Below are positions 3,841-29,669 of a DNA stretch of 64,000 nt, in pieces. Under the pieces are notes generated by a model, which saw only the letters and a program-made list of their open reading frames with translations, searched no databases and was not told where the DNA came from. A program made the translations under genes and the position numbers. The first letter of the stretch is position 1; every line of letters starts with the position of its first letter. This DNA comes from Candidatus Oxydemutatoraceae bacterium. Its GTDB lineage: Bacteria; Pseudomonadota; Gammaproteobacteria; Poriferisulfidales; Oxydemutatoraceae. The stretch is from NCBI GenBank assembly GCA_965218975.1, contig OZ244717.1, forward strand, positions 338,347 to 402,346. The letters are read 5' to 3'.

Positions 3841-5814
<1,974 letters not shown>

Positions 5815-10243: not shown

Positions 10244-10247
10244 GACA

Positions 10248-10538
10248 TTGGAAGAACATCTTTATGTCATTGCTTATGACATTTCCGATCAAGCAAGGGG
10301 GCGCCTGATATTCAAACTGCTGCATGGTTATGGGGAATGGTTGCAAATGTCTGTCTTTCAATGCCGGCTATCCCGTCGTCGTCATGCGGAATTGATTGCC
10401 ATGCTGGACGAAATTATCCACCACACGGAAGATCATGTTATGCTGATGGACCTGGGATTAGCGGATTCGGTTAAACCGAAAATTGTAAGTCTAGGCAAAG
10501 GTTTTCAACCGGTGGAAAGGGAACCGATTATTGTCTGA
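10248..10538 (+). CDS. cas2: Cas2
   Basis: LYVIAYDISD....R......L..YGEWLQMSVFQCRL is the Cas2 beta1/ferredoxin-fold signature. The likely TTG start at 10248 lies just after the cas1 stop (10241-10243); the listed ORF starts at 10215. Confidence 0.85.
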   Translation: MEEHLYVIAYDISDQARGRLIFKLLHGYGEWLQMSVFQCRLSRRRHAELIAMLDEIIHHTEDHVMLMDLGLADSVKPKIVSLGKGFQPVEREPIIV

Positions 10539-10749
10539 TGTTCTTCCGTTCTTCATAACTCCCGCGAGAGCCTAGGTGATGAACGTTTGTCCGGGCAGTG
10601 CTCGCATAAAAATGTTCTTTGACAATCAGTATCTTACAGGTGACATCTTGCAAAAAAAATACAAGAAACACGACAGTGTTATGATGCATTTAGACCTCTC
10701 GAAATGGCTTTCTATAATCTTTGCCAAACAATAGGTTATGGGATGTGCT
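10539..10749 (+). promoter_or_regulatory. CRISPR leader with a candidate promoter (TTAGAC 10690-10695, 17 nt spacer, TATAAT 10713-10718)
   Basis: An AT-rich 211 bp non-coding stretch lies between cas2 and the first repeat. A perfect -10 hexamer sits 32 bp upstream of repeat 1, with a weak -35 at 17 bp spacing. Confidence 0.5.
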
Positions 10750-13700
10750 GTATTCCGTAGCTATATGCTACGGCCTCATTGAAGCATCTCCATTTTATAC
10801 GCGGCAGAATTACCGCGTGATGTATTCCGTAGCTATATGCTACGGCCTCATTGAAGCGATATGGCCACATTCGGCGATGAGGACGATGACATCAGTATTC
10901 CGTAGCTATATGCTACGGCCTCATTGAAGCTAGAAGTAGTGGTTTTATACCTTGATAGAAGTTTTGTTGTATTCCGTAGCTATATGCTACGGCCTCATTG
11001 AAGCCGACACTGTATGTGATCGCGAGCTACTCTGTGACACGTATTCCGTAGCTATATGCTACGGCCTCATTGAAGCGAGAATAATGAAAAGTAAGATGAA
11101 AACACCTGCTTATGTATTCCGTAGCTATATGCTACGGCCTCATTGAAGCTTTTGCAGCAAGCTGCTAAAATTATGATAACAGATTGTATTCCGTAGCTAT
11201 ATGCTACGGCCTCATTGAAGCTTCTAAGTTCGGCTTCCATCATTTGTTGAGCACCTGGTATTCCGTAGCTATATGCTACGGCCTCATTGAAGCATCTACA
11301 AGTCGCTCGCATCTCCGCACGTCATCGGCGTATTCCGTAGCTATATGCTACGGCCTCATTGAAGCAGCACCGGTAGTTTCTGTTGAAGAACTTGCTATGA
11401 AGTATTCCGTAGCTATATGCTACGGCCTCATTGAAGCCAATGCCAAAGACCTAATGCACCATGTCATTAGATGTATTCCGTAGCTATATGCTACGGCCTC
11501 ATTGAAGCATCGACCAGCCGCTCGCATTTCTGCACGTCATCGGCGTATTCCGTAGCTATATGCTACGGCCTCATTGAAGCGAGATAACCGTCAGTAATTC
11601 CGCAAAGAATTTTGTGGTATTCCGTAGCTATATGCTACGGCCTCATTGAAGCGATTACTTGGGCACAAGAAACGAAAGCAGCATATCGTATTCCGTAGCT
11701 ATATGCTACGGCCTCATTGAAGCGAATTTTCAAGCGTTTGCGTGTACCAGATATGCCGGGTATTCCGTAGCTATATGCTACGGCCTCATTGAAGCCGTAC
11801 AGGCAGTCACGCATCGGAGATCGGCATCGCGGTATTCCGTAGCTATATGCTACGGCCTCATTGAAGCGAGAGGTTAGCTGCACCTGCCGACTGGAAAGAA
11901 TCAAGTATTCCGTAGCTATATGCTACGGCCTCATTGAAGCTCGAGTTATCTTCGCGTTAGTCGGGTCAAAAAATAGTATTCCGTAGCTATATGCTACGGC
12001 CTCATTGAAGCCTGCAATTCAACCTGCAAACCGTTTTTTACAATGCGGTATTCCGTAGCTATATGCTACGGCCTCATTGAAGCTGCCGCAAGTGTCGGGT
12101 TGCCGAAGTCGTTAAATGCGTATTCCGTAGCTATATGCTACGGCCTCATTGAAGCTTTACCCCGCTCCACAATGGCCATGATTGCTGCGTAGTATTCCGT
12201 AGCTATATGCTACGGCCTCATTGAAGCTGCGGGTCGCCGACGCAAGAAAAAAGGTTGCATTAGGTATTCCGTAGCTATATGCTACGGCCTCATTGAAGCT
12301 TGGCGGGACGCAACTAAGTCGACCGAAGGGTTAGGTATTCCGTAGCTATATGCTACGGCCTCATTGAAGCTGGGCTGTACCCTGACGACTCCTGCGAATT
12401 TGATGATGTATTCCGTAGCTATATGCTACGGCCTCATTGAAGCGCGGTAAACGCTAACTCCATGTTCAGCTAATCGGCTGCGTATTCCGTAGCTATATGC
12501 TACGGCCTCATTGAAGCCTCACTGCCTTCGTTTCCTTCCAGCATAATTACAGCGTATTCCGTAGCTATATGCTACGGCCTCATTGAAGCTATATTTTTTT
12601 TCTACATCTTCCATGTTTTATCTCCGTATTCCGTAGCTATATGCTACGGCCTCATTGAAGCCCACGATTATCTTTGTGTTGCGAATGATTGCCGAGGTAT
12701 TCCGTAGCTATATGCTACGGCCTCATTGAAGCCGGTGTAAAATCATCCATCAAAATAACGGTCTTGCTGTATTCCGTAGCTATATGCTACGGCCTCATTG
12801 AAGCAAGAAATTGAACATCGGCTACAGCTATGATACCTGACGTATTCCGTAGCTATATGCTACGGCCTCATTGAAGCTGTTTTGTAGTAGTGCATTGTTA
12901 GCAGTTCGTTTGTGTATTCCGTAGCTATATGCTACGGCCTCATTGAAGCTTCTCCAATAACTGTTGGGTCAGGCACAAGGCCTGCGTATTCCGTAGCTAT
13001 ATGCTACGGCCTCATTGAAGCTAGTAAGATCATTAGTTCTGCTGTTTTGAGATTCCGGTATTCCGTAGCTATATGCTACGGCCTCATTGAAGCTGCAAGA
13101 GCTAATTGAAGGTGGAAAAAATGGCAGGTGTATTCCGTAGCTATATGCTACGGCCTCATTGAAGCAACGTTACACAGAATTAGTTGTATAGACTTATTAG
13201 GGTATTCCGTAGCTATATGCTACGGCCTCATTGAAGCCCACGATTATCTTTGTGTTGCGAATGATTGCCGAGGTATTCCGTAGCTATATGCTACGGCCTC
13301 ATTGAAGCCGGTGTAAAATCATCCATCAAAATAACGGTCTTGCTGTATTCCGTAGCTATATGCTACGGCCTCATTGAAGCTCATTGACTCGGGATATGGA
13401 CGTCCTCGATTCTTTAGTATTCCGTAGCTATATGCTACGGCCTCATTGAAGCTATGCAAAAGATACCGAAGAATACAATAATTTGAAGTATTCCGTAGCT
13501 ATATGCTACGGCCTCATTGAAGCTTTGAAGATCAATATGTATTCAATCGTTAAGTTGGGGTATTCCGTAGCTATATGCTACGGCCTCATTGAAGCACATT
13601 GGATAGTGCTGCGATTGAGCCTTTTATGAGAGGTATTCCGTAGCTATATGCTACGGCCTCATTGAAGCCCATTCTCCAAAGCTGCCGCGAGAAACCCGTT

Positions 13701-15981
13701 CCCGCGTATTCCGTAGCTATATGCTACGGCCTCATTGAAGCTCTACGGTGATCTGACCGAGCACTTCCAACTCAGCGTATTCCGTAGCTATATGCTACGG
13801 CCTCATTGAAGCTACGCAGCGGTACGGCGTCTCGGAGCCGCACACTTGGGTATTCCGTAGCTATATGCTACGGCCTCATTGAAGCGAGGCAGCTTTGTCC
13901 ATTTGCTGGAGCCGCACGCGGTATTCCGTAGCTATATGCTACGGCCTCATTGAAGCCGGTGTAAAATCATCCATCAAAATAACGGTCTTGCTGTATTCCG
14001 TAGCTATATGCTACGGCCTCATTGAAGCTCATTGACTCGGGATATGGACGTCCTCGATTCTTTAGTATTCCGTAGCTATATGCTACGGCCTCATTGAAGC
14101 TATGCAAAAGATACCGAAGAATACAATAATTTGAAGTATTCCGTAGCTATATGCTACGGCCTCATTGAAGCTTTGAAGATCAATATGTATTCAATCGTTA
14201 AGTTGGGGTATTCCGTAGCTATATGCTACGGCCTCATTGAAGCACATTGGATAGTGCTGCGATTGAGCCTTTTATGAGAGGTATTCCGTAGCTATATGCT
14301 ACGGCCTCATTGAAGCCCATTCTCCAAAGCTGCCGCGAGAAACCCGTTCCCGCGTATTCCGTAGCTATATGCTACGGCCTCATTGAAGCCTCACTGCCTT
14401 CGTTTCCTTCCAGCATAATTACAGCGTATTCCGTAGCTATATGCTACGGCCTCATTGAAGCTATATTTTTTTTCTACATCTTCCATGTTTTATCTCCGTA
14501 TTCCGTAGCTATATGCTACGGCCTCATTGAAGCGCGGATGATAATTTGTGCAATTCCCTCATTTGCCTTAAGTATTCCGTAGCTATATGCTACGGCCTCA
14601 TTGAAGCCCGGAAGTTAAAGTCCCCATGTCCGCAGTTAAAGCGGAGTATTCCGTAGCTATATGCTACGGCCTCATTGAAGCGGCTCGGCAATTTCAGTCA
14701 TCAAATCTTTATAACTCGTATTCCGTAGCTATATGCTACGGCCTCATTGAAGCATGATGGTGTTTTAGCACCGTCATGAATGATGTTAAGTATTCCGTAG
14801 CTATATGCTACGGCCTCATTGAAGCTTGTTGCAGTATTTATTTTTATCTCGCTTGTCATGTTGTATTCCGTAGCTATATGCTACGGCCTCATTGAAGCTG
14901 GTAAGCACATTCGACTCAACCATGGCTTTCCTCACGTATTCCGTAGCTATATGCTACGGCCTCATTGAAGCTGTGTGGCGGAATGTCCCTTTTGGGTATA
15001 GTTTATCCGTATTCCGTAGCTATATGCTACGGCCTCATTGAAGCAGCGAAGAAGCCGATGAGGCAGGCGTATATATAGTGTATTCCGTAGCTATATGCTA
15101 CGGCCTCATTGAAGCGACCGCTGTAACTACGACCTGTCACATTACATAATGTATTCCGTAGCTATATGCTACGGCCTCATTGAAGCGGTGCTTTACTCAC
15201 GCATTCAAGGAATCCGGCGCATGTATTCCGTAGCTATATGCTACGGCCTCATTGAAGCAAATCTCCGTTGTTGTGGTGCCGGCAAGAGCGCCGGGTATTC
15301 CGTAGCTATATGCTACGGCCTCATTGAAGCAACCTTTGCATCTGGGGATAAAAAACAGTACTGGAATGTATTCCGTAGCTATATGCTACGGCCTTATTGA
15401 AGCATTGCAAATCATCCATATACGGATAAGGAAACAAAGTATTCCGTAGCTATATGCTACGGCCTCATTGAAGCTTTGGCTTCTATTGTTCTGCGCGGTT
15501 CGGGTACGCATGTATTCCGTAGCTATATGCTACGGCCTCATTGAAGCCCAACTATTTGGTCAACACCTATCAACCCAGAAATAAGTATTCCGTAGCTATA
15601 TGCTACGGCCTCATTGAAGCGACTCAACGCTAATGACGCATACGGCAAAGCCGGATGTATTCCGTAGCTATATGCTACGGCCTCATTGAAGCGGCGTTGG
15701 GTAAATCTCAGCTAGTGCGTAAAGTGCACGTATTCCGTAGCTATATGCTACGGCCTCATTGAAGCGATTTTCTAAGTCAGGAAGCTCCAACCCGCAACAT
15801 AGGTATTCCGTAGCTATATGCTACGGCCTCATTGAAGCAAGCCGCTGTTATATCGAGTGGTCAAGGAGTGAGTGGTATTCCGTAGCTATATGCTACGGCC
15901 TCATTGAAGCTTTTCGTTATTGGGACGCAAGTCATTCCAGGAGACGTATTCCGTAGCTATATGCTACGGCCTCATTGAAGC
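10750..15981 (+). CRISPR. CRISPR array: 73 copies of the 36 bp repeat GTATTCCGTAGCTATATGCTACGGCCTCATTGAAGC and 72 spacers of 35-38 bp
   Basis: I located every repeat start by hand: first at 10750, last at 15946, with periods of 71-74 bp. The repeat has an internal hairpin, CCGTAGC-TATAT-GCTACGG, and ends in ATTGAAGC. One variant repeat at 15368-15403 has C>T at 15395. The leader and cas2 lie at the 5' side. Confidence 0.97.
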
Positions 15982-16010
15982 GCGATTAAATGTTTTTCGT
16001 AAATTTATGC

Positions 16011-16901
16011 TCAACGTTCACCACTGAATAAAGCCTCTTGAATGTCGCCTTGAATACAATTCTTCACGCCATTCGCATTTCTTTGTTTTGTATTTTTAAC
16101 AGGTTTCCTAAGTGGTTGCCCATTATGTTCAAGATACCCAAGAACTCTCCGCAAGCCAATTTCAACATGCTTTTGTGATCTTTCAATACCGATGCTTTTT
16201 CTACCTAATGTTCGTGCAACTGCATTAGTAGTAAATGCTCCTGCAAACGGGTCAAGAATTATATCTTCTTTATTTGAACTTGCTTGAACAATTCTTTGAA
16301 GAAGCGTTTCAGGTTTTTGGGATGGATGATCTTCATATTCATCCATCTTGTAACGTACTCGAGGAAAATACCAAACATTTCCTGGAACTTTTTTCGTATT
16401 ATAAATCGTTGGAATCTTTTTTCTGTAGTCAATAAGTTTACGTTTAGCCCCCGTTTTAGCTTCTATAGCAATTGTGTCAGCGTTAAAAGTGTAATTATCA
16501 AGATCTTTCACACAGAAAAGAATCGGTTCATACATGGAACCATAATATTTTTTCGCTTGCACCCCCGAACTATCATATGACCAAATAATTCTGCTAAGTA
16601 TGTTTATTCTCTTTCTCAATATAATATCTATGTAGGGCATAGCTTGGGTGCTTGTCATCACATACATAGAGCCTTGAGATGAAAGTTTATCAATACAAAG
16701 AGTTAACCATTTCTCACACCATTCAGCATACGCTTCATCAGAAGGCCATTTGTCATCAAATCCATCAAAGCGTTTCCCAATGTTGTAAGGGGGATCAGCA
16801 AATATCAAATCAATTGAATTATTAGCAATTTTATCGCGTAATACTTCTATTGCATCGCCTTGGTAAATGGCATGATTTTTTATTTCGTATTTTTTAATCA
16901 T
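16011..16901 (-). CDS. DNA methyltransferase, beta-class N6-adenine/N4-cytosine type (DPPY)
   Basis: Motif IV, IFADPPYNIG, lies near the N-terminus. Motif I, LDPFAGAFTTNAVA, lies near the C-terminus, giving the beta-class order. The start is 4 nt downstream of the IS1595 transposase stop. Confidence 0.8.
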   Translation of the reverse strand: MIKKYEIKNHAIYQGDAIEVLRDKIANNSIDLIFADPPYNIGKRFDGFDDKWPSDEAYAEWCEKWLTLCIDKLSSQGSMYVMTSTQAMPYIDIILRKRINILSRIIWSYDSSGVQAKKYYGSMYEPILFCVKDLDNYTFNADTIAIEAKTGAKRKLIDYRKKIPTIYNTKKVPGNVWYFPRVRYKMDEYEDHPSQKPETLLQRIVQASSNKEDIILDPFAGAFTTNAVARTLGRKSIGIERSQKHVEIGLRRVLGYLEHNGQPLRKPVKNTKQRNANGVKNCIQGDIQEALFSGER

Positions 16902-16905
16902 TAAA

Positions 16906-17826
16906 TCAAGCTACCAATTGTTCATAAGTAATCGTCTTCCCAACCATGGCCTTAAAGAGATCATCAAGTCTGTCCTGTGTATCACGTTTCACATTGCCTT
17001 CATTAAGTCTGAATGTAAACTCATTTACATATTGTTGACAATGCTTCTTGCTCCAATTGTGGTAAACACCATTGAAGCCACGTTTAATCACTGACCATAC
17101 AGATTCAACTCCATTAGTATGCGCCATCCCGTTAACATATTCTCTTGCTGAATGTTTTACGCTTTCATGCTGATAATAGTCGCCTCCAATATCTTTATAA
17201 CCCTTGTGGTCATCCGTATAAATGGTGGTACCCACTTCAATGTTAGCAAGAACAGCACTATGAATAGTAGCCTTGTCTTCACCTTCAACTGGCATAGCTT
17301 TTACACGGCCTTCCCGTTCTCTCATACCCAGCACAGCCTGCTTTCCCACAGTACCGCGTCCGGCCTTGAGTTTCTTATGAGAGTGTTTATTCTTTTCAGC
17401 CCTACCAATATAGGTGGCGTCCATTTCCACTTCACCACTCAAGGCTTCAAGATTGTTGCCGCAAGCTAAACGTAGCCTATGCAGCATGTACCAGGCTGTC
17501 GGATAGCTAACGTCCAGTTCCTTGCTTAATTGCATGGCGGAAATACCTTTACGGGCGGTCATAAGCAGATACGCTGCAAATAGCCACATACGGGCATCAC
17601 GCACCCTGTTATGTTCAAGTGGGGTTTCTGTGAAAGCATTGAAATATCCGCGACAATCGCCGCACCAATAACCTTTCTTGTAGTTCTTTTGCTTGGTGAT
17701 TCTGCCGGTACAGCCGCATTTGACACATACAGGCTTAGTTCCCCATCTAAGCTGCTCAAGCTTCGGCAAAAATGTTTTCAAGGGCAATTTCATAATTGGA
17801 CTCTTTTGGCGATAGACCCCGTTCAA
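16906..17826 (-). mobile_element. IS1595-family transposase gene (intact)
   Basis: The N-terminal zinc ribbon is CVKCGC....WCGDCRGYF. The ISXO2-like DDE core is TIYTDDHKGYKDI...HESVKHSAREYVNGMAHTNGVESVWSVIKRG..GVYHNWSKKHCQQYVNEF.FR. The probable start is MKLPLKTF at 17793. I could not define terminal inverted repeats confidently. Confidence 0.8.
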
Positions 17827-18193
17827 TTGATTTATTGCGGGTCACGCCCCGTGCCTTTAGGCAGGCAACTTTTAGGAGCCACTCATCAACATCCGGAATC
17901 CATTGTTCCTTTGTATCCGAAGGCAGCAGAAAAAGTCTTTGCTTCCCACCTTCGAGAAAGGGACTTTGTAAATTGTCACGTATATTTTTTAAAAGTATAT
18001 CGCTTGCTACAGAATCATCATAAATTTTATGGCACCAATTCCAAATCGGACCAAGTTTATCGGCCTTATCAACCACTTCCCCTGTTTCATCAAGGAGGAT
18101 ACTAACAGGAATTAGCTTCTTGTCGAACGCCTTCTTAGGATCAACAAGAGATTTACCGATTTTGGAATTTCGGTAACGTAATTCTTCCTTCAT
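17756..18193 (-). CDS. Hypothetical protein (145 aa); its 3' end runs into the IS1595 upstream region and is possibly IS-truncated
   Basis: The ORF lies on the same strand as the upstream operon, 105 nt after the 300 aa gene. No recognisable motifs were seen. The last ~13-25 codons overlap the transposase start region. Confidence 0.4.
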   Translation of the reverse strand: MKEELRYRNSKIGKSLVDPKKAFDKKLIPVSILLDETGEVVDKADKLGPIWNWCHKIYDDSVASDILLKNIRDNLQSPFLEGGKQRLFLLPSDTKEQWIPDVDEWLLKVACLKARGVTRNKSIERGLSPKESNYEIALENIFAEA

Positions 18194-18298
18194 CTACCAA
18201 TTTAATCCAATCATGAATTGAGCGTTCTTTATAGATTGTTTCCATAGTCTGTTGTCCTCCTTATCGGAAATACAACCTCTGCATCGACAATTGCAGCT

Positions 18299-19201
18299 TC
18301 AATTCTTTCCATCTTCAGCGGCTTTGACTGCATCAACAACGTCATCAGCAAGTCGACGAAGTTCAACATATTCAAGCACTGCTAGTTCTCGAGAACCGCC
18401 GATAAAGCAAATCTCCCGGCATACATCTAGCACTTTGCCGGCAGGCGGCAGTTTGCCGCTACTTTCATTGTCGTCGGGAAGAAATCTTGTGAGACTCGCC
18501 GCCACGGCTTCTTGGACCGAAGCTATTCCAAAAACGGGATTCCTGGATACCATTGCAGATACAAACCATTCCCAGTGGGCTTTTGTTTGCCGAAGTATTT
18601 TTCCTATCCGGTCTTTCGCTATCCCGGATTGTATCTCGGCTCGCCGAACTAGCCGCTCCCGCCACCAAGCTCTCGCAAACGGACAATCAACAAGAACACT
18701 TTTGTTCCCCCGAACATGAGGCAATCCACCCAGTTGGCGTAGAACCGAACGCACGCAGTTGTCCGTTTGCTCTTTTCTTTTAGGGTTCTCGTTGGCCATT
18801 ATCCTGTCAATACGCTCTGCGCCTGTTTGTGATGCGATCCCATTACTTGCGAGGAAACTCGGTTCGATTCGACCTTCCCGAACGTGGCACATAGTGACAT
18901 GAGTCCAAAATAATGTGCTTGAGGCAATCGACAAAGAAAGGTTATTCCAGAGATCGTACATCTTGGATTCAGTGCTAGCTGGGGGATCCTTGAATTGCGC
19001 CTCGCTCATCTTGACCTGATACAGATCGGGATCAATCAAACCAGAAACCGGAATCTGCTCCATAGTTTTGATGAATGCTTCCCCGTCTCTGATCTCTTGA
19101 AGAAATGCCTCTTGTTTTTCGCTACCTTTCTCGCTAAGCAAATTCGCCCGGAATTTGGCCCACTCTTTGTCGTCAAGACATTTCCAATCAAGTTCACTCA
19201 T
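18299..19201 (-). CDS. Hypothetical protein (300 aa), operon partner of the sulfur-modification module
   Basis: An 8 nt overlap with the upstream gene indicates translational coupling. I cannot assign a family. The conserved-looking core is FWTHVTMCHVREGRI ... RQLGGLPHVRGNKSVLVDCPFARAWW. Confidence 0.6.
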   Translation of the reverse strand: MSELDWKCLDDKEWAKFRANLLSEKGSEKQEAFLQEIRDGEAFIKTMEQIPVSGLIDPDLYQVKMSEAQFKDPPASTESKMYDLWNNLSLSIASSTLFWTHVTMCHVREGRIEPSFLASNGIASQTGAERIDRIMANENPKRKEQTDNCVRSVLRQLGGLPHVRGNKSVLVDCPFARAWWRERLVRRAEIQSGIAKDRIGKILRQTKAHWEWFVSAMVSRNPVFGIASVQEAVAASLTRFLPDDNESSGKLPPAGKVLDVCREICFIGGSRELAVLEYVELRRLADDVVDAVKAAEDGKN

Positions 19202-20087
19202 CTTCGTGCCTCAATGGTGGGGGTACATCATGCGGATAAAGCAGCGTTGCAGCCTCCTCAGGTCTGAAATCCGGATCTTCCCAATTACAATTAGTGCAGC
19301 CTTTCGTTTCCAGATCATTGGCAAGCGATTCTAGAGCTTTGTAACTGCACCATCCTTCTTCACTATCTCCGTCGGAATCCTTGTATTTCCGTTGCAGTGC
19401 AGAAAAGCACGAAGTCACGACATGAGTCATAATGTCCTTGCGTTTATCCGAATAGTGCCCTTTGTCTTGAAGAAAAGTATAAAGAGCTGGACCACAATGT
19501 ACTACGAAGCGGAACGTGTCTCCATCAACAGCCTCTGTATAAAATTGGCCTTGCTTTAAGCTTTCGTCCGACCAAATAGAAATGAGTCCTTGAAGACCTG
19601 ATGCCCCAAGATTAAATACCGGCCCCTGCGCAAGCCAAGCACCCTTCGGAAATATTACTTCCAAACCATTCCAGTCGGGATGTACATCATCCTTTTCAGA
19701 ATCCAGAGTACAGAATATTTCCCGGATGCATACAATTACTGGAGTGAAGTACGGAGGCTCACCAAAGTTTGTGTTATTCCAAGCAATTTCCTGGGTCGGA
19801 TCTTGAGAACACTGAAGTTCCCGATACGCCGAGCGAGGCGCGGCCAAAGAACAAGCATACCGGGCATGTTTTTGCGCAATCAGTCGCTCGACCAGACGGG
19901 CACCCGTCACCGAATGCGTTAGCAAGAAGCGGCTTTTGTCGGAACTAAACCTATGTTGAACCTGACTATGTTGAACCTGATAATTGCCATTCGGGAAGGC
20001 ATCATTGCCTTCCTCAATTGCCGGATAATTACGCGCCAGAATCGCGTTCGCCCCGGGGGCGCTCTTGGCGTTGATGTCGGTATTCAT
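19194..20087 (-). CDS. Hypothetical protein (297 aa), operon partner of the sulfur-modification module
   Basis: There is a 4 nt start/stop overlap with the GHKL ATPase gene. No recognisable catalytic motif was seen. Confidence 0.6.
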   Translation of the reverse strand: MNTDINAKSAPGANAILARNYPAIEEGNDAFPNGNYQVQHSQVQHRFSSDKSRFLLTHSVTGARLVERLIAQKHARYACSLAAPRSAYRELQCSQDPTQEIAWNNTNFGEPPYFTPVIVCIREIFCTLDSEKDDVHPDWNGLEVIFPKGAWLAQGPVFNLGASGLQGLISIWSDESLKQGQFYTEAVDGDTFRFVVHCGPALYTFLQDKGHYSDKRKDIMTHVVTSCFSALQRKYKDSDGDSEEGWCSYKALESLANDLETKGCTNCNWEDPDFRPEEAATLLYPHDVPPPLRHEDE

Positions 20088-22051
20088 TCTGAAGTGCTTA
20101 TGGTGGGCTTAGTATCATCGGAGGGTCTCTTGCCAATCTCCACTCGGAGACTTGCTCCGGATTGGATAGGGACACCATCGGCTGCCAGTTTATATTCGGC
20201 CTCTACTTCGGTCGTAGTATTCTTTCCAAGATTGCCCAGCAAAATAGCAGGATAGGGTTTGGTAATTATTCTATCCGGCTGAATCGTTTTTCCATTGACC
20301 TTCGCCGCGGTGATTGCGGCAACACGATCAGTCCATATACGCTCAGTCGTTACATCCGAATGATCATCAACAACGAGACGGAGTTCCAGATCTTCACAAG
20401 GCTCAATGCAATGGATCCGGATTTTCCGGCGATTTGAAGCCGATGGAGTAACAACGATCTTAAAATATTGCGGCAAGGTCGGCCTTTCCCGAGAGCCGCT
20501 CCGGCTACTTTGCCGTCTTTTCCCGGTATTCTTGCTTCGGCCCTTGTTCCTGCCACCTGTCGTTCCCCCGGGCCCTGTTTCATGTGGTCGCCGTGAGGAT
20601 ATCCGTCTCTTAATCAGCGCGATTGTGCCCTGATATTCCCGACCGGCTTTTTTTCCTTGTCGGCTTCCGGCGGTGCTATCAGGGAAGACCAAGAAGTCGT
20701 CAGGGCTATACTCGTCAGAAGTAAGTTTTGGTATTACCTCTTCGATTTTCTTTTTAATCACATTAAATGCCTGACGTAGCTGCTTCCAGTCCTCGTTGCT
20801 GATAGCCTTCTTATCAAGCCGATTGTGTAGAGGCCCCTCAGCTTTTCCAATAAGATCGTGGAACCGGCGGGGCGCGCTCTTTGCGGAAACCAGAACCAAA
20901 CCTTCAAAGGCCTCATAGTCTGCAAAGTTAAAACCGGGAATGTTGCCGGTAATCCACATACCGTTCCTGCAAAGATTTACTCGCGTTCGCCCTGAAGGCG
21001 CCGGATGCTGAACGAAAAGTCTTACCGAGCCATCCAGGACCTCAACTTCATGGCGATAACCTCCTCGGTAGGCTTGATAGGCAAAAAATGCCTGTTCGCC
21101 CGGGAGATAGTCCTTTTTCCGTTTTTGTTCCCGATATTTCTCCAGAACAGTCTGCAACTGCTCACTCGTAAGTTCCCGCTGGGGCTTATTGCCCTCGCCT
21201 TCAATAACCACCTCGAGCTGCCCATCAGCTATTGCGACAAAAAAACTACAGGCAATAGCCTCCGGTACGGTATCAGATAGAAAATCCTTATCCTTACTAC
21301 GAAAACGGTTGAATGCAGGAACGATAACGGCAGTCCCATGTCCGGAATCCTTCTCAATATCCGCCAAAGCGTTTTTAATCAATATCGGAAGGTCATTTCC
21401 CCACGGGTATATGTATTCTCTTTTTTTGCGATCAACCAAGTAATAACCGTTAGCGCTCCGCCCTGTGTCGTCGCTCTGGTTAGCATAATGGGATGCGAGA
21501 ATTGCGTGGCCGCTTGCAATCCGTTTCCCGTTGCAAATACCACCGTAGAGTACATACCTGAGATCTGAGGCGGGAAATAACGAAAAATGCCCAACGCCGA
21601 AGGTACCGGACGCTCCACTTTCCTTGCGACTTCTGCCGTCCGACAATAATGCCGTCATTCTGTCTTTGTCGAGGCCAATACCATTGTCCGAAACAATAAG
21701 TGCCTGCTGCCAATCTTGTGATAGCGCTTCAGAGATTCTGTCAGCCACAATTTGCTCCTGATCATTGAGCGAACCGTTGTTTTCCTCCTCACGCCTTTTC
21801 ACTGCTTTCTTAAAAGCGGATTTATAACTCTCAATTCCAGGTATATCTTCGGTTTTTACCTCCGTAGTAGAAAAACGTACTATAGCCCTAGCCTCACGAA
21901 CCCCAGTGTAATGGAGGGCGGCGGCGGCATCCAGAGAATTTTGGATCAGCTCGCGCACAATTGCGAACGAACTCATCTCTCGGAAGCTGCTAATGCTAGC
22001 AGCCGTAAATCCGTAAGAGTCACTCGATTTGAAAAAATAAAGATCTGTCAT
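20084..22051 (-). CDS. GHKL-superfamily (sacsin/Hsp90-like, HATPase_c_3-type) ATPase with a basic low-complexity linker
   Basis: Bergerat-fold motifs are present: N-box FAIVRELIQNSLDA, G1 box VSDNGIGL and G2 box GASGTFGVGHFS. The C-terminal third contains an R/K/S/G-rich stretch (RNKGRSKNTGKRRQSSRSGSRER). A 4 nt overlap with the desulfurase gene stop indicates coupling. Confidence 0.75.
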   Translation of the reverse strand: MTDLYFFKSSDSYGFTAASISSFREMSSFAIVRELIQNSLDAAAALHYTGVREARAIVRFSTTEVKTEDIPGIESYKSAFKKAVKRREEENNGSLNDQEQIVADRISEALSQDWQQALIVSDNGIGLDKDRMTALLSDGRSRKESGASGTFGVGHFSLFPASDLRYVLYGGICNGKRIASGHAILASHYANQSDDTGRSANGYYLVDRKKREYIYPWGNDLPILIKNALADIEKDSGHGTAVIVPAFNRFRSKDKDFLSDTVPEAIACSFFVAIADGQLEVVIEGEGNKPQRELTSEQLQTVLEKYREQKRKKDYLPGEQAFFAYQAYRGGYRHEVEVLDGSVRLFVQHPAPSGRTRVNLCRNGMWITGNIPGFNFADYEAFEGLVLVSAKSAPRRFHDLIGKAEGPLHNRLDKKAISNEDWKQLRQAFNVIKKKIEEVIPKLTSDEYSPDDFLVFPDSTAGSRQGKKAGREYQGTIALIKRRISSRRPHETGPGGTTGGRNKGRSKNTGKRRQSSRSGSRERPTLPQYFKIVVTPSASNRRKIRIHCIEPCEDLELRLVVDDHSDVTTERIWTDRVAAITAAKVNGKTIQPDRIITKPYPAILLGNLGKNTTTEVEAEYKLAADGVPIQSGASLRVEIGKRPSDDTKPTISTSE

Positions 22052-23202
22052 GCTACTGCTACTCCTTCACCAAACTGCCGTTCAAACGCAAGAGCGGCAA
22101 GCATAATATCCTCCTCTGTGGTAAACCGGCCTAGGCTAATACGGACCGCCTGAAGCGCCGACAAAGGCGGTTGTCCGAGGGCCGTTAAAACATGAGACGG
22201 TTCAACCCCTCGTGACGAACAGGCAGAACCCGTTGAAATCGCCACGCTCCCTTCAAGCCCGGCAATTACTTCATCTCCGGATATCCCCGGAAACGACACA
22301 TTTAAACTTCCCGGTACACGTTGATATTTGTGCCCGTTCAGTTGAAGCCCTGGCGCGCTTTTCTGCAGTAACTGCCATAGCCGGGAAGTCAGTTTCCTGA
22401 TACGTAACGAATCCTTTTCTGTCTCATTCAACGCAATTTCACATGCCGCACCAAAGCCAACAACGAGATGTACGGGCAAGGTGCCGGGACGTAAGCCGCG
22501 CTCCTGACCACCTCCTGTAGCAACCGGCCCGATGCGATCAAAAGTATCGTTGTGGACATAGAGGACCCCAATCCCCATCGGGCCATATACTTTGTGCGAG
22601 GATAACGACAACAGGTCGATTCCAAGCGAATCGACATCAATTCCTATTTTTCCGGCGGCTTGGGTTGCATCCGTATGCATTAACGCACCATGCTCATGGG
22701 CAATCGACGCAATCTCGGCAACCGGATGAACAACTCCAATTTCGTTATTAACCAGCATAGCGGATACTATCGCAGTCTTATCGCTGATCGCATCTTGCAT
22801 TTCGTCCATATCCATAATGCCGTCCGGATTCACCCCGATCTTGCGGATAGGAACTCCATCCAAACCCAATGCTCGAACTGTTTCCAAAACTGCCGGGTGC
22901 TCGGTAGCTACAGTAATAATCTCGTTACGGCCAGTGCTTCTCTTGATCGTGCCTCGAAGCGCAATGTTGCAGGATTCCGTTGCGCCGGAAGCAAAAATAA
23001 TTTCTTGGTCGTCTGCGCCTAACAGGGCAGCTACCTGAGCACGACCTTCAGCTACGGCCCGCGCCGCATTCCATCCATAGGCATGATGGATTGCATGGGG
23101 ATTCCCAAAACGCTCTTGCAGAAAAGGCTGCATGGCATCTCGAACCCGGGGGTCAAGCGGAGTGGTGGCCTGGTAGTCCAGATACACCGGTGCAGAAGCC
23201 AT
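22048..23202 (-). CDS. Cysteine desulfurase (NifS/IscS/DndA class, PLP-dependent)
   Basis: VYLDYQATTPLDPRV is at the N-terminus. The PLP-lysine motif is SSHKVYGPMGIGVLYV and the active-site cysteine loop is STGSACSS. The probable start is the ATG at 23202 (MASAPVYLDY), 4 nt after the upstream stop; the listed ORF extends to 23274. Confidence 0.9.
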   Translation of the reverse strand: MASAPVYLDYQATTPLDPRVRDAMQPFLQERFGNPHAIHHAYGWNAARAVAEGRAQVAALLGADDQEIIFASGATESCNIALRGTIKRSTGRNEIITVATEHPAVLETVRALGLDGVPIRKIGVNPDGIMDMDEMQDAISDKTAIVSAMLVNNEIGVVHPVAEIASIAHEHGALMHTDATQAAGKIGIDVDSLGIDLLSLSSHKVYGPMGIGVLYVHNDTFDRIGPVATGGGQERGLRPGTLPVHLVVGFGAACEIALNETEKDSLRIRKLTSRLWQLLQKSAPGLQLNGHKYQRVPGSLNVSFPGISGDEVIAGLEGSVAISTGSACSSRGVEPSHVLTALGQPPLSALQAVRISLGRFTTEEDIMLAALAFERQFGEGVAVA

Positions 23203-23206
23203 ATGT

Positions 23207-24568
23207 TTAGTCAGTGCAATCACATGGCAACATGGCCTTGGTTTCAGTGAGCGCTTGGACTCCGCGGTCCGCAATGTTTCGGTAAGTCATCTTGCTGTTC
23301 GTTCCAAAGAAACCGACTGTACCGTCAATGCCTCGTTGTTCTGCTGTCAAATCCCGAGTGTAGGTATCCTCTATACGAGCCCACCAAGCGACATCCATCG
23401 GTGTGTTCTGCTGACTGTTAGGTAAATCTGCCTCGCATTCCGAATGAATACTCTCATAAACCTTAGTCAGGTTTGATGTTCCCTTGAGAAAACAGTAAAC
23501 ACAATTGGACAGATGCCCGGTCGCGGGGAGTTTCAATTCAAAATCCTTGTTTTTCCGCCAGAATGCCTTAACGTCTTCTTTTTTTACACACATGTCTGAA
23601 AGCGGCATATAGACATGTTCTCCTTCATACTCCCGAACCTCAGAACTGCCCGAGATTCTCGCTTCGACACGTTGCACACGTGCCTCTTCATCTCCCCTCA
23701 ACCCGATAAAAGCGACATATTGCACTCCACCCTCGCCAAATACAGCATTCCCCCCATACGCTTTCCCATCCAAGAGCTTACTGTCCATGGCGTCTGATGC
23801 TGTCGAAAAATCCTTATAACGTTGCTCCGGACGACATACCGGCTGTGACATCACAAATTTCTTCTTGGCCAGAAAAATATCTCTTGGGACCCCGCCATTA
23901 TTGCGACGGTGGCGTTGATAAAGCGTTTCCTCATCAACCTGGGGCTTATTCTCCCAATGGCCAAGACGAGGAATGATTTTTTTGCAGGCCAGCCAGTCGC
24001 GCAGAAACATTCGTGTTGTCTCAAGTTTCAGAGTTGCTGTGCAGGTCCGGCGGAACTGGTTGGGAACATACCCTGACCACGACAACATCTCCTCAAAGAC
24101 CTCGCCCCTCCAGCAGTAACCATCCGGGTTATTTTCCGAACGAGGCTTGGCATTCACTAGCCGATAGGAAGGCAAACGAGTCCAGTCGCCGTTGCGCACA
24201 TCTTCATAGGTTTGATACTCGATCAGAAAAAATGGAATTCCGTAGCAAGATTCTGCTCGTTTCTTGCATTGGGCTACAAAGTCATAGGTGGCCGGATGTT
24301 CGGCAGCAGTATTGTTAAAGAGTATGACATCACCGCGCTCGGCCTTTAGTACACGGTTTTCCAGCAGAGTAAACAAAAGCATTCCGCTGGATCGACCGCC
24401 GGAGAATTTGACAACGTGAGGAAAATTCTCGTGCCTTTTAGACCGATATCGAAACTGATACTCGAACTCCGGATCGTATTTTTTTGGTTTGCGAAGGCGT
24501 TTCGAAACTACTAGCTTGGGAATTCCTTTTACAGAATGTTTAACAAGATTTTCTACAACGGTCTGCAT
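23207..24568 (-). CDS. PAPS-reductase-fold PP-loop ATP pyrophosphatase (DndC/SspD-like class)
   Basis: The PP-loop is VVKFSGGRSSGMLLF, followed by LFNNTAAEHPATYDF, the CysH/PAPS_reduct pattern SGGxxS...NT..E.P.T..F. C-terminal cysteines are NCVYCFLKG and a terminal LPCDCTD. The gene sits directly upstream of a cysteine desulfurase. Confidence 0.75.
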   Translation of the reverse strand: MQTVVENLVKHSVKGIPKLVVSKRLRKPKKYDPEFEYQFRYRSKRHENFPHVVKFSGGRSSGMLLFTLLENRVLKAERGDVILFNNTAAEHPATYDFVAQCKKRAESCYGIPFFLIEYQTYEDVRNGDWTRLPSYRLVNAKPRSENNPDGYCWRGEVFEEMLSWSGYVPNQFRRTCTATLKLETTRMFLRDWLACKKIIPRLGHWENKPQVDEETLYQRHRRNNGGVPRDIFLAKKKFVMSQPVCRPEQRYKDFSTASDAMDSKLLDGKAYGGNAVFGEGGVQYVAFIGLRGDEEARVQRVEARISGSSEVREYEGEHVYMPLSDMCVKKEDVKAFWRKNKDFELKLPATGHLSNCVYCFLKGTSNLTKVYESIHSECEADLPNSQQNTPMDVAWWARIEDTYTRDLTAEQRGIDGTVGFFGTNSKMTYRNIADRGVQALTETKAMLPCDCTD

Positions 24569-24623
24569 TACGGCCTGCCTCCAAAAATCCGGGAATTATT
24601 AAGATTCGTTGACAAGGACTGAC

Positions 24624-24968
24624 TTATTCAACCTCTTCCATGATTGGTTTTCCCTTGCGACCTACCCGCATTCTAAACTTTCTTTGCAAGTCTTTCTTGA
24701 AAACATAGGTTCGATTAAGAGGGTAAAACTCGTTCATCATCGAAAGTTTAGACATGACAAAAGAGTCTTTATCGTAATTTTCATCAAAATCGCAACCCCA
24801 TCCAAAGCAAACAAACGGCGTCAGAGCCTCATGGTTCATCGCTGCCCTGATGCCTATCAGATTCTTGCCAAGTCGTTCTATAGCGTTTCCTTGTGCCTGT
24901 TTTTTCTTTCCTTCCTGTTCACGTTCCCTATTCGTTCCCTGTTTCTTTATTTCTGAAACAACAATCAA
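24624..24968 (-). CDS. Hypothetical small protein (up to 114 aa)
   Basis: The ORF is on the operon strand between the NPPF methyltransferase and the PP-loop gene. It has a lysine/glutamate-rich N-terminus and no motif. An equally long ORF exists on the opposite strand, so coding status is uncertain. Confidence 0.3.
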   Translation of the reverse strand: MIVVSEIKKQGTNREREQEGKKKQAQGNAIERLGKNLIGIRAAMNHEALTPFVCFGWGCDFDENYDKDSFVMSKLSMMNEFYPLNRTYVFKKDLQRKFRMRVGRKGKPIMEEVE

Positions 24969-25031
24969 TTTGCGGTAGTTGGCATCATTTTCCTTTCTCA
25001 GCCAGATTACCCCGCCATCGGGTATTATTGT

Positions 25032-25781
25032 TCAATCAGTAAACACCAAATCAAACTCATGTCTCTGGCCGGCCCCTTTGATTATAGATGGCTTTGTCGC
25101 TCCGTTTGGAGTCTTTATTCTTGACCTTGTGTTGCGCCGTGTTTTGGCGCAGATCCTCTGCTCTAGCCACTGTAGAAATAATGCCCCTTTTAGCCCATGA
25201 ATATTGAAAATCAAAACTTCACTATGGAATAGAACATCGTTGTATATGTCTTTCGGCAAGGCCACTATAGACGTGATTTCAGGGTAGGTTCCATCTACAA
25301 AACGCATCCAACGCTTGCTATTCAGAGTCTGGTTAAGACGTAACCCATAAGGCGCAAACAAAACAATCGGGATGTTTTTACCAAATAACTCTATCGTTTT
25401 ACGCAACCAGACTTCAAGTAAAAGCGGACGTCTGCCGAATGTTTCCGATACCAACTGTTTTGTTTTTTCTTCAATATTAAAAGGCGGGTTCGCAATGACA
25501 AGTGCGGGTTTTTCCACTTCACCTCTTGAAAGGGAAATAAAATCCCTGACAATCGTGTCGGGAAATCCTTGATCCTCTATGTCAACCCCTTTTGTTTTGA
25601 ACCCCGCTTGCTTAAAAGGGATAAGAAGCGAACCCTTACCTACACACGGGTCAAATACGATTCTGTCGGATTTGATTTTCTTATGAACAATACTAAACAG
25701 GAATTGGCTTAATTCCGGCGGGGTGTAGACTGTGGAGTTCTTTTGCTCCTTGTAAAAGTCGTTGCGGTCAACGCGATACAT
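25032..25781 (-). CDS. N6-adenine DNA methyltransferase, gamma-class (NPPF), compact form
   Basis: Motif I is VFDPCVGKGSLL. About 55 aa later comes motif IV, VIANPPFN. The ATG abuts the stop of the decayed IS1595 transposase (TGAATG). Confidence 0.7.
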   Translation of the reverse strand: MYRVDRNDFYKEQKNSTVYTPPELSQFLFSIVHKKIKSDRIVFDPCVGKGSLLIPFKQAGFKTKGVDIEDQGFPDTIVRDFISLSRGEVEKPALVIANPPFNIEEKTKQLVSETFGRRPLLLEVWLRKTIELFGKNIPIVLFAPYGLRLNQTLNSKRWMRFVDGTYPEITSIVALPKDIYNDVLFHSEVLIFNIHGLKGALFLQWLEQRICAKTRRNTRSRIKTPNGATKPSIIKGAGQRHEFDLVFTD

Positions 25782-26275
25782 TCATGCTACCAGTTTCTCA
25801 AACGTTACGGTCTTCCCAACCATGGCCTTAAACAGGTCATCCGGTTTGTCTTGTGTATCACGAGCAACATTGTCTTCATTCAGGCGAAAGGTGAACTCGT
25901 TGACGTACTGCCGGCAATGCTTCTTGCTCCAATTGTGGTAAACACCATTGAAGCTGCGTTTGATGAGCAACCATACAGACTCGACCCCGTTTGGTATGAG
26001 CCGTCCCGTTCACATACTCTCTGGCCGAATGGTTGACCTTTGCCTTTATACCCCCTGTAATCATCGGTGTAAGGAGTAGAGCCAAGCTCAATGTGCTCGC
26101 GGAATGGCATTGCTGGTCGTTTCATGGTCCTCGGCCCGTATCGGCATGGCCTTTATATGGCCGCCACGCTCCTGCATCCCCAGCACGGCCCGTTCGTCTA
26201 CCGATCCTCGTCCAGCTTTCAGCTTCTTGTCCATGTGCTTGTTCTTTCATTTACGGGCATCCATGAGCTTGTTGT
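25782..26275 (-). pseudogene. IS1595-family transposase remnant (5'-truncated, multiple frameshifts)
   Basis: Pieces in three frames match the C-terminal ~160 aa of the transposase at 16906-17826. Examples are KKLKAGRGS..AVLGM, PYTDDYRGYKG, HSAREYVNG and SFNGVYHNWSKKHCRQYVNEFTFRLNEDNV....DDLFKAMVGKT.T.E.LVA. The DNA is clearly diverged from the intact copy. Confidence 0.8.
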
Positions 26276-26560: not shown

Positions 26561-27040
26561 GTTTTGTGTTTGGTGGCAGATTGTCGGCGGATTGTGCCGG
26601 ATTATTGGTGGATTGTTGGTAGGTTGTGCCGGATTATTAGCAAAGTGCATGTCGTCCATGACGCGACTGGGTTCTGTCAACAAGCCCCAGCCCCGACATC
26701 CTTGTCGGGTCGTTCGCCGCTGAAAACCGTTCGGTTTTCCGGGCGCGGCTTACCCATGACGCGACTGGGTTCTGTCAACAAGCCCCAGCCCCGACATCCT
26801 TGTCGGGTCGTTCGCCGCTGAAAACCGATCGGTTTTCCGGGCGCGGCTTACCCATGACGAGACTGGGTTCTGTCAACAAGCCCCAGCCCCGACATCCCTG
26901 TCGGGTCGTTCGCCGCTGAAAACCGTTCGGTTTTCCGGGCGCGTCTCACCCGACAACGGACAGAAAGCACCGATCCGAATGTTGCTGCCGAATGCTTCCC
27001 CGGAAGCCCTTCAAGAATCCCATTTAGGGTGGCATCGTAC
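26561..27040 (+). repeat. Mosaic intergenic repeat cluster, copy 1: G/T-rich head, three ~97 bp units, conserved tail
   Basis: The head (26561-26657) has GGATTGT/GGATTAT motifs every 9-12 bp. Units start at 26658, 26755 and 26853. Each contains the hairpins CCCGACA-TCCT-TGTCGGG and GAAAACCG-TT-CGGTTTTC. The tail AAAGCACCGATCCGAATGTT...CCCATTTAGGGTGGCATCGTAC runs 26964-27040. Confidence 0.9.
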
Positions 27041-27166
27041 ATTCTTGACAAGCCCGCCGCTTTCCCCTAACCTGAGCTTAAGTTACGAGGCGCAGGCCTT
27101 ATTCTTTACTCGCCCGCGGGGAGGATCCTCGCGGGGACCTTCCAGCGGTAACAACAGGAGACTATT

Positions 27167-27376
27167 ATGGAAATTACTGCTGAGAAATTTGAGCAGGAGC
27201 TTCAAAAGCTTGAACAGAGGCTTGAGCGAAAGTTTGATACGAAGCTTGATACGAAGTTTGATAAGCTCGAAGCCAAACTCGACTCGGTGAAGACTTGGTT
27301 TGTCGGTTTAATGGTCACTACCGTTTTAGTCGTGACCGCGTTGATGACAACATTCGTCAACATTAACATGAACTAA
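27167..27376 (+). CDS. Small coiled-coil protein with a C-terminal transmembrane anchor (69 aa; DUF1640-like pattern by recollection)
   Basis: An AGGAG RBS lies 7-8 nt upstream. A heptad-like region, EQELQKLEQRLERKFDTKLDTKFDKLEAKLDS, is followed by the hydrophobic helix WFVGLMVTTVLVVTALMTTFV. The gene is flanked on both sides by the mosaic repeat clusters. Confidence 0.6.
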   Translation: MEITAEKFEQELQKLEQRLERKFDTKLDTKFDKLEAKLDSVKTWFVGLMVTTVLVVTALMTTFVNINMN

Positions 27377-27487
27377 CCCGGGCATCACCGCCTATTCTTA
27401 AAACTTGGTTTCGCGTCTGCTCGCGAAATCCTACTCTAAATTGATGATACAAACCATGGGTTTTTATCCTTAGCCTGCCTATCAGCA

Positions 27488-27851: not shown

Positions 27852-28044
27852 TGCGGCGTCAGGGTGGGCCTTATCCGCACGTAGCGGTCAACCGTATATA
27901 GCGTCAGGCATGCGAGCCGAAATCGGACAGCGCCGGCAACCGATATATCCTCGCATCCCGGTAACATTGCCTGCGCGGACCGCGCAGCTCATTGGGTTAC
28001 AATACCCCGTAGCTAAAAATAAAAAAGGTCTGACTGACAACTAC

Positions 28045-29661: not shown

Positions 29662-29669
29662 AAAACAGA

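Follow-up and report, generated by a model that had tools for sequence, protein, structure and literature searches.

A candidate DNA sulfur-modification cassette combining a sulfur-transfer pair with a GHKL ATPase and the B297 and DUF6339-like proteins

In the 64,000-nt stretch of Candidatus Oxydemutatoraceae contig OZ244717.1 analyzed here (hereafter the window; all positions are those of the whole stretch), the gene for a GHKL ATPase is followed by three open reading frames (ORFs) of 297, 300, and 145 codons, and the question raised by this locus is what their products do. The first-pass annotation treated all three as orphan proteins and candidate effector or nicking components coupled to a sulfur module. 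Our analysis supports this in part. With a probability of roughly 0.55, positions 18299–24568 (minus strand) carry five translationally coupled genes that make up a cassette for DNA sulfur modification, most likely phosphorothioation (PT), to which the 297-aa protein (here B297) and the 300-aa protein (DUF6339-like) would contribute DNA-handling subunits. The 145-aa ORF, judged by alignment, is a pseudogene, namely the remnant of a GmrSD/SspE-type DUF262 restriction gene.

The cassette genes and the 145-aa ORF all lie on the minus strand (Table 1), and stop and start codons overlap all along the series from the desulfurase to the DUF6339-like gene. Desulfurase and GHKL genes share 4 nt, the 655- and 297-aa ORFs 4 nt, and the 297- and 300-aa ORFs 8 nt, and 105 nt separate the 300-aa stop codon from the start of the 145-aa ORF; the first description of these coordinates and overlaps was accurate. 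The desulfurase likely starts at the ATG at 23202 (MASAPVYLDY) rather than at the TTG, in which case 4 nt lie between the PP-loop stop codon and that ATG. Window proteins were scanned against Pfam, NCBIfam, and PADLOC profiles with a reporting limit of E ≤ 0.1, the limit that applies to the window scans below unless another is given. Neither Pfam nor NCBIfam matched the 297-, 300-, or 145-aa ORF, and PADLOC matched neither of the latter two. The earlier remark that none of the three carries a nameable motif thus stood except for B297, which gave the sole named-family match, to the PADLOC candidate family PDC-M33B (1.1e-6).

Table 1. Genes and gene remnants of the sulfur-modification locus and its downstream flank.
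Feature	Position	Strand	Length	Remarks
PP-loop/PAPS-reductase-like ATP pyrophosphatase	23207..24568	-	453 aa	
Cysteine desulfurase, DndA/SspA/IscS-like	22048..23274	-	408 aa from TTG	
GHKL (Bergerat-fold) ATPase	20084..22051	-	655 aa	
B297	19194..20087	-	297 aa	beta-sandwich N-terminal part, helical C-terminal part; PDC-M33B-like
DUF6339-like all-alpha protein	18299..19201	-	300 aa	final gene of the conserved five-gene core
5' stub of DUF262 (GmrSD_N) restriction gene	18153..18245	-	30 codons, then stop	
145-aa ORF, internal DUF262 gene remnant	17756..18193	-	145 aa	by alignment, a pseudogene fragment
IS1595-family transposase gene	16906..17826	-		DDE_Tnp_IS1595 3.3e-43; NF033547 4.8e-57
N6/N4 DNA methyltransferase	16011..16901	-	296 aa	N6_N4_Mtase 2.2e-54; NF008572 2.3e-134, above cut-off

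The 297- and 300-aa ORFs are real, conserved genes, aligning at full length with hundreds of homologs, and the suspicion that they might be unconserved and spurious can be set aside. A word-indexed search returned 199 homologs of the 300-aa protein, and a full hidden Markov model (HMM) search of 1.84 billion cluster representatives (50% identity) with a B297 profile returned 578 representatives at E ≤ 1e-3, 122 of them at E ≤ 1e-30. For gene context, one genome per GTDB species was scanned with a DUF6339 alignment, yielding 79 loci, nearly all in metagenome-assembled genomes (MAGs), many of them apparently assembled from long reads. Together with locus L001 this made 80 loci searched, 79 of them distinct since L001 duplicates L004; ORFs were called in 10-kb flanks and assigned by iterated phmmer and hmmsearch. 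The DUF6339 gene was present in 80/80 loci, the GHKL ATPase gene in 79, the B297 gene in 78, the PP-loop gene in 74, and the desulfurase gene in 68. This gene content bears out the proposals that the ORFs are part of the sulfur-module operon and that the 297- and 300-aa genes keep company with those for the PP-loop enzyme, the desulfurase, and the GHKL ATPase, and the contrary pattern, homologs occurring mostly without the sulfur module, was not what the 80 loci displayed. The order PP-loop, desulfurase, GHKL, B297, DUF6339 was nearly constant, the exceptions being two contig-truncated loci, two fragmentary loci, a few loci lacking the desulfurase, one permuted locus (L040), and one locus limited to the GHKL, B297, and DUF6339 genes (L074). 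In Dnd systems, a housekeeping IscS can replace the dedicated desulfurase (PMC10853773). The loci span at least 10 phyla, with hosts among the Alpha- and Gammaproteobacteria, Binatia, Spirochaetia, Verrucomicrobiae, several Acidobacteriota orders, Longimicrobiales, Dehalococcoidia, Rhodothermales, Latescibacterota, Entotheonella, and Porifericomitales. We take several of the lineages to be sponge symbionts, and most of the MAGs appear to come from sponges or other marine hosts (habitat assumed).

Genes adjacent to this constant core vary. The remaining flank ORFs were clustered and representatives scanned against the family libraries. The recurrent neighbors were a PbeA-like phospholipase D (PLD)-plus-helicase protein (28 loci; PADLOC PbeA 1.7e-148, TIGR04095 3.1e-95), a PbeC/DndD-like structural-maintenance-of-chromosomes (SMC) ATPase (26 loci; PADLOC PbeC 1.2e-41), a Sigma-70-region-4 protein (24 loci; Sigma70_r4 2.6e-9), a DUF262/GmrSD_N protein of ~600 aa (22 loci; above the Pfam threshold at 8e-15 to 8e-23), a protein of TIGR04096, [quoted passage not shown] (19 loci; 1.2e-183, above cut-off), a 172-aa protein matching no family (17 loci), a protein of NF045808, "phosphorothioated DNA-binding restriction endonuclease," a PT reader joining a sulfur-binding domain (SBD) to HNH (9 loci; 7.4e-75, above cut-off), and a DndB-like DGQHR protein (8 loci; TIGR03187 1.2e-34). 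Beyond these families, the flanks showed no conserved gene cluster, and loci with a Pbe-like module contained no second PP-loop gene. The restriction neighbor thus changes by locus, being Pbe-like, DUF262, SBD-HNH, or none, and the DUF262 gene takes one of two places, downstream of the DUF6339 gene or in the interval separating the desulfurase gene from the GHKL gene. The window itself lacks TIGR04096, NF045808, PbeA/PbeC, and DndB-like genes. Dnd is described as pairing with DndFGH or PbeABCD, and Ssp with SspE or SspFGH (PMC9239217, PMC10853773). A constant core accompanied by exchangeable restriction and reader genes with PT annotations is what one expects of a module for PT modification, an argument by association that suggests the chemistry of the mark. 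Because B297 and DUF6339 are invariant while the restriction genes vary, both would belong on the modification and DNA-handling side. This speaks against the effector role first proposed for them; a nicking role is possible, although neither confident model shows a nuclease fold that would support it.

The two sulfur-transfer proteins differ in how closely they resemble known enzymes. The desulfurase was matched by Pfam Aminotran_5 (7.5e-82), PADLOC SspA (2.2e-140, residues 31–396), PADLOC DndA (2.5e-140), and TIGR03235 DndA (3.4e-118), the last at 395 bits and so below its 480-bit cut-off, and it carries a pyridoxal phosphate-lysine motif (SSHKVYGP) and a catalytic cysteine loop (STGSACSS), both read from the sequence. 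Matches of the 453-aa PP-loop protein were far weaker: Pfam PAPS_reduct at E = 0.01, under the cut-off; PADLOC SspD at 4e-7, with only residues 163–195 aligned; PADLOC BrxP at 1e-5; and none to NCBIfam DndC (TIGR03183). By these scores it is very divergent from DndC, SspD, and BrxP. Across 62 homologs, the SGGxxS PP-loop (S56, G58, S61) and five cysteines (C176, C356, C359, C449, C451) are invariant, and because these features are kept the family fits an Fe-S PP-loop sulfur-inserting enzyme. We therefore predict that it serves as the sulfur-inserting enzyme in place of DndC, SspD, or BrxP.

All three Bergerat motifs of the GHKL ATPase are invariant among 56 homologs: motif I (ExxxNxxD; E34/N38/D41), motif II (DxGxG; D122/G124/G126), and motif III (GxxGxG; G149/G152/G154). 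The protein was matched by PADLOC PDC-M33A (1.1e-36), an NCBIfam sacsin-type ATP-binding domain (4.8e-8), and, weakly, HATPase_c_3. Residues 470–545 form a very basic disordered linker (isoelectric point 12), which is followed by a small conserved C-terminal domain with the acidic motif R-L-x-V-D-E-x-x-D (R558/D562/D566). We predict that this ATPase is the DNA-clamping motor of the modification complex. In its neighbor B297, the PDC-M33B match covers the N-terminal ~140 residues and recurs in 32 of 33 B297 relatives (best 2.4e-11), which at E ≤ 0.01 were matched by no other family apart from one marginal DruH hit. The window thus holds the A (GHKL) plus B gene pair by which PADLOC defines PDC-M33, a two-gene candidate defense system that has not been experimentally validated. 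Since both scores are moderate, GHKL and B297 may represent a sister lineage of PDC-M33, related but not identical. The window pair also differs in its setting, as it is flanked by a sulfur-transfer pair on one side and by a DUF6339 protein on the other, none of which was matched by any PDC-M33 model in the scans.

The 300-aa protein is linked to Pfam DUF6339 (PF19866), a family without known function, through its relatives. Most homologs reach DUF6339 at a marginal 24–30 bits (gathering threshold 23.2 bits), mainly over the C-terminal ~115 residues; the nearest relative of the window protein scores 14.3 bits, remoter relatives 24.3–29.6 bits, and the window protein gives no DUF6339 match at all. 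Because it escapes the Pfam model, we regard it as representing a divergent, longer DUF6339 subfamily. The first-pass annotation had singled out a conserved-looking core rich in cysteine, histidine, and arginine. This block is indeed the most conserved part of the family, with W99, R151, G159, R164, G165, R177, W179, and W180 invariant and F98, H106, S168, C173, P174, and R181 at least 90% conserved among 62 homologs, but the impression of richness in cysteine and histidine holds only in part, as C105 and H101 are not conserved. A zinc-binding or metal-cluster role was accordingly dropped, since only C173 (≥90%) and H106 hold. AlphaFold models of B297 and the DUF6339-like protein are confident, and in neither did we find a nuclease fold (PD-(D/E)xK, HNH, PLD, or HEPN) or a convincing PDB relative; PDB sequences searched with alignment profiles of both families returned nothing, or noise at E ≥ 0.4. 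Fibronectin type III and immunoglobulin matches for B297 were not useful, and HEPN or PD-(D/E)xK nuclease readings were abandoned because neither motif nor fold favored them. No relatives were found in viral contigs scanned with the DUF6339 alignment.

The strongest clue to the function of these two proteins comes from natural B297::DUF6339 fusions, of which we found seven divergent examples among metagenomic gene calls. Five (584–634 aa) consist of a full B297 followed by a full DUF6339 protein, and two (444 and 471 aa) join the first ~145 residues of B297, the region matching PDC-M33B, to DUF6339. Sequencing artifacts are an unlikely source given seven divergent cases, two of them with matching internal deletions. 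The fusions suggest that B297 and DUF6339 form one unit, within which the N-terminal domain of B297 may couple to the GHKL ATPase and the Arg/Trp-rich, helical DUF6339-like protein would be the likelier DNA-contacting subunit. Our prediction for the latter is a DNA-binding or target-recognition, possibly nicking, subunit. Duplications were also seen among the related loci. In the alphaproteobacterial MAG represented by L001/L004 (chromosome OZ251539.1, locus positions 8452–10906), a 238-aa DUF6339 gene lacks the N-terminal part of the family, and an additional complete B297 plus DUF6339 gene pair lies past the DUF262 gene, which points to local duplication of the pair as a unit. A Longimicrobiales MAG (L041, locus positions 11585–19085) carries a second cassette copy without a desulfurase (PP-loop, GHKL, B297) followed by three successive DUF6339 paralogs.

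Taken together as a mechanism, the desulfurase would mobilize sulfur from cysteine, and the Fe-S-type PP-loop enzyme would activate the target in an ATP-dependent step and insert the sulfur. GHKL ATPase, B297, and DUF6339 would form a unit, driven by ATP, that locates the DNA site, clamps it, and makes it ready, perhaps by nicking, with B297 and DUF6339 acting as one physical unit tied to the GHKL partner through the beta-sandwich N-terminus of B297. This unit would fill the role of DndD plus DndE or SspC plus SspB in known PT systems. Where a sixth gene is present in the form of the ~600-aa DUF262 (GmrSD_N) protein with its C-terminal HH...N...H motif, it may encode the restriction nuclease that responds to the modification, a counterpart of SspE or GmrSD/BrxU.

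In the window, this sixth gene is a wreck, and the 145-aa ORF, first listed as a third orphan protein, is part of it: the real candidate effector of the locus, dead here. Comparison with homologous loci, as originally suggested, recovered the intact ~600-aa DUF262 protein, and the region was aligned to a family HMM of 585 positions and searched by tblastn with the intact 600-aa L001 homolog. HMM positions 2–25 are kept in a separate frame (2.4e-8), opening at the ATG at 18245 and reading "METIYKERSIHDWIKLVDEGRITLPKFQNR" before a stop codon, and tblastn aligned residues 9–32 of the L001 homolog to the same 5' stub. Positions 26–124, which include the invariant LDGQQR core, are missing; positions 125–211 (3e-13) and 267–306 (2.4e-10) are kept inside the 145-aa ORF, with 212–266 missing between them; and positions 307–585, including the conserved C-terminal HH...N...H motif, are missing. 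The gene has thus suffered a frameshift, two internal deletions, and a cut at approximately residue 306 of 585. About a quarter of it survives, and both the DGQQR NTPase core and the nuclease end are gone. A conceptual frameshift-repaired product of 165 aa matched nothing in Pfam. Among PDB entries, the intact family is closest to BrxU (7p9k, 3.7e-12), a DUF262 protein, and the one intact homolog scanned, that of L001, was not matched by the PADLOC SspE model.

The proposal that the native C-terminus of the 145-aa ORF was lost at the insertion sequence (IS) proved correct, as its 3' end abuts the IS1595 transposase gene. A simple IS1595 insertion was nevertheless rejected. DUF262 homology continues through "...PKESNYEIALENIF" to about 17765, a stretch that, read in a different frame, coincides with the first ~10 codons of the transposase ORF, and the conserved zinc ribbon of the transposase starts almost directly past this overlap; neither a plausible terminal inverted repeat nor a left inverted repeat was found at this IS copy. 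The transposase likely starts at the ATG at 17793, and its gene appears 5'-truncated. Because of the overlap and the lack of an inverted repeat, the junction seems to stem from a deletion by which an IS copy, truncated at its 5' end, became fused to the DUF262 gene. The 296-aa methyltransferase gene beginning 4 nt past the transposase stop codon, where GC content is low (0.36), does not belong to the sulfur cassette. A second, decayed IS1595 transposase gene lies at 25785–26264 (minus strand), covering residues 135–306 only, with in-frame stops and 55% identity to the first, and is directly followed by a 249-aa N6_Mtase-like gene (25032–25781, minus strand). Mutual similarity of the two IS copies does not extend past the transposase stop codon, which in each copy is followed within 0–4 nt by the start of a different methyltransferase gene, so that the sulfur operon is bracketed by two "transposase plus methyltransferase" units of the same orientation. 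Past the stop codon of the 249-aa methyltransferase (~24600–25030, minus strand), the same frame reads "...IIPDGGVIWLRKENDANYRKLIVVSEIKKQGTN...GNAIERLGKNLIG...," which we take to resemble the catalytic region of EcoRI (PD...E-x-K...GNAIER) and thus presumably to be a candidate remnant of an N-terminally truncated EcoRI-like endonuclease.

Loss of the restriction gene is not confined to the window. In the closest relative (L083, with a DUF6339 protein 73% identical), the DUF262 gene is interrupted at approximately residue 440 by an IS3-type element, and the five core genes are intact in both loci. As the IS elements and the sites differ, the restriction partner was lost independently in two related loci. 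Since its DUF262 partner is destroyed, the window module is probably an orphan modifier, a modification-only module.

Compared with known systems, the cassette appears from its domain content to work like the Ssp and Dnd modification modules without being a member of either. With SspABCD-SspE it shares an SspA-like desulfurase, a PP-loop enzyme that appears PAPS-reductase-like together with an ATPase and putative accessory DNA-handling protein(s), and a DUF262-type partner nuclease encoded beside the modification genes. It differs in that its ATPase has a GHKL/Bergerat fold whereas SspC is a BrxC-like P-loop protein, in having B297 and DUF6339 in place of DUF4007 (SspB), in a PP-loop protein that aligns with SspD over 33 residues only, and in a DUF262 homolog that, as judged from L001, is nearer BrxU/GmrSD than SspE. 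No operon protein was matched by SspB, DUF4007, or SspC in PADLOC, Pfam, or NCBIfam. The likeness to DndABCDE with PbeABCD or DndFGH lies in the DndA-like desulfurase, in the PbeA-like (TIGR04095) and PbeC/DndD-like genes following the cassette in ~28 related loci, and in the DndB-like genes of eight; the modification core, however, has no DndC equivalog match, no DndD, and no DndE, none of the three being matched by any window protein in NCBIfam, and the window has no Pbe-like genes. Intact relatives of the 145-aa ORF resemble the GmrSD/BrxU type IV enzymes (DUF262 plus DUF1524) in their GmrSD_N domain with LPxFQR and LDGQQR motifs and in the C-terminal HH...N...H, but Pfam detects no C-terminal DUF1524 domain in them.

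Several observations weigh against a five-gene sulfur-modification cassette: GHKL and B297 resemble the stand-alone candidate pair PDC-M33; one locus (L074) has the GHKL, B297, and DUF6339 genes but lacks any PP-loop or desulfurase gene within 10 kb, so that this trio could function independently; the PP-loop protein is not matched by the DndC model and only weakly by SspD and BrxP; and the 80 loci, fetched by motifs of this particular DUF6339 subfamily, are uninformative on more distant DUF6339 proteins. The first two would be expected if GHKL, B297, and DUF6339 were a self-contained defense or effector module of the PDC-M33 type and the PP-loop enzyme and desulfurase alone wrote the mark, in essence the view of the first-pass annotation and an arrangement made thinkable by the report of a PT system with a single modification gene, tdpC (PMC12914056), and by the several loci in which the DUF262 gene, placed between desulfurase and GHKL genes, marks a seam between sub-modules. 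We consider it unlikely, because the trio stays constant while Pbe-like, DUF262, and SBD-HNH genes are swapped around it, which would make a second, invariant restriction module redundant, and because no nuclease or toxin fold appears in either confident model. Stop and start codons also overlap from the desulfurase through DUF6339. Finally, destruction of DUF262 beside five intact core genes, in the window as in L083, is expected of a harmless modification module and not of an unchecked effector.

It is less likely still that the sulfur mark made by the cassette is something other than PT (e.g., a thiolated base) or that the cassette acts on RNA or tRNA, with B297 and DUF6339 as substrate-recognition subunits; the narrower case of a DNA mark chemically different from PT we hold to be improbable. 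The DUF262 partner family is of the GmrSD/BrxU type, to judge by its match to 7p9k, and this type is best known as a reader of modified bases. The great distance of the PP-loop enzyme from DndC, SspD, and BrxP also suits such readings, and Fe-S PP-loop enzymes do thiolate tRNA, as ThiI, MnmA, Ncs6, and TtcA (PMC12914056). Against them stand the PT-specific families among the neighbors, namely TIGR04095, TIGR04096, and NF045808, whose sulfur-binding domain recognizes PT, together with the DndB-like regulators, and the setting of the locus within a defense island with CRISPR-Cas and restriction-modification (R-M) systems rather than among translation genes. That the ORFs are spurious or functionless, decayed leftovers has a negligible chance of being true: the idea fits the 145-aa pseudogene fragment only and is refuted for the 297- and 300-aa ORFs by their conservation, these being full length, with many invariant residues and confident structure predictions.

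For the five-gene cassette as a DNA sulfur-modification system, the comparison with published PT systems then becomes relevant. The recognized systems dnd, ssp, BREX type 4, and tdp all contain a PAPS-reductase-domain protein, which in the first three is partnered by a P-loop NTPase, DndD or SspC/BrxC (PMC12914056), and known systems all combine this protein with an ATPase plus a partner that binds or nicks DNA (PMC12914056, PMC12839542). We give even odds to the cassette being a fifth type of system for DNA phosphorothioation (or a related sulfur modification), one in which GHKL plus B297 and DUF6339 replace the P-loop ATPase plus DndE/SspB and which has spread horizontally over at least 10 phyla. 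A neighboring P-loop NTPase was a requirement in at least one published screen for new PT systems (PMC12914056), and such a filter would have missed this cassette. Two recent comparative-genomics studies of PT and BREX contain neither GHKL nor MORC, and our literature search, whose coverage was incomplete such that an earlier description is possible, returned no description of DUF6339, of PDC-M33, or of phosphorothioation combined with GHKL; the five-gene GHKL sulfur-modification architecture is apparently undescribed so far. If the assignment is correct, it would widen the mechanistic repertoire of DNA backbone modification, give a function to DUF6339 and to the PDC-M33B-like family with its 578 cluster representatives, and link GHKL/MORC-type DNA clamps to bacterial epigenetic marking.

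The remainder of the window holds further defense genes and repeats. A CRISPR (clustered regularly interspaced short palindromic repeats) array of 73 repeats at 10750–15981 (plus strand) has a 36-nt repeat (GTATTCCGTAGCTATATGCTACGGCCTCATTGAAGC) matching Rfam CRISPR-DR16 and contains duplicated spacer blocks, 100%-identical copies of 182 and 300 nt at 12480/14352 and 13269/13917. Upstream of it, at 1087–10243, lie genes for Cas3, GSU0053-family and GSU0054-family proteins, and a Cas4-Cas1 fusion; the locus looks like type I-U/I-G. An apparently intact type II R-M pair is encoded at 27910–30455 (plus strand), comprising a 583-aa N6_N4 methyltransferase and a 261-aa TdeIII-family endonuclease (RE_TdeIII, 3.7e-87). 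A probable type III R-M system at 44845–51810 (plus strand) consists of an 862-aa protein of the ResIII helicase type and a 573-aa N6_N4 methyltransferase (5.6e-57), and within this region the 97-nt segment 47172–47268 is duplicated at 48752–48848 with 95% identity. Two tandem genes at 30702–32374 (minus strand), encoding secreted Sel1-like repeat (SLR) proteins of 197 and 305 aa with near-identical N-termini, hold internal 108-nt repeats; the Sel1 call was made by eye from recurring "GDGVPQD...AVKWYRLAAEQG" units. Intergenic repeats of ~90–230 nt ("...CCCCAGCCCCGACATCCTTGTCGGGTCGTTCGCCGCTGAAAACC...") occur in tandem clusters at 26561–27880, 41068–41127, 51901–52550, and 54858–55150, with a 57–60-nt piece inverted at 41068, and look like a repetitive extragenic palindromic (REP) or miniature inverted-repeat transposable element (MITE)-like family.

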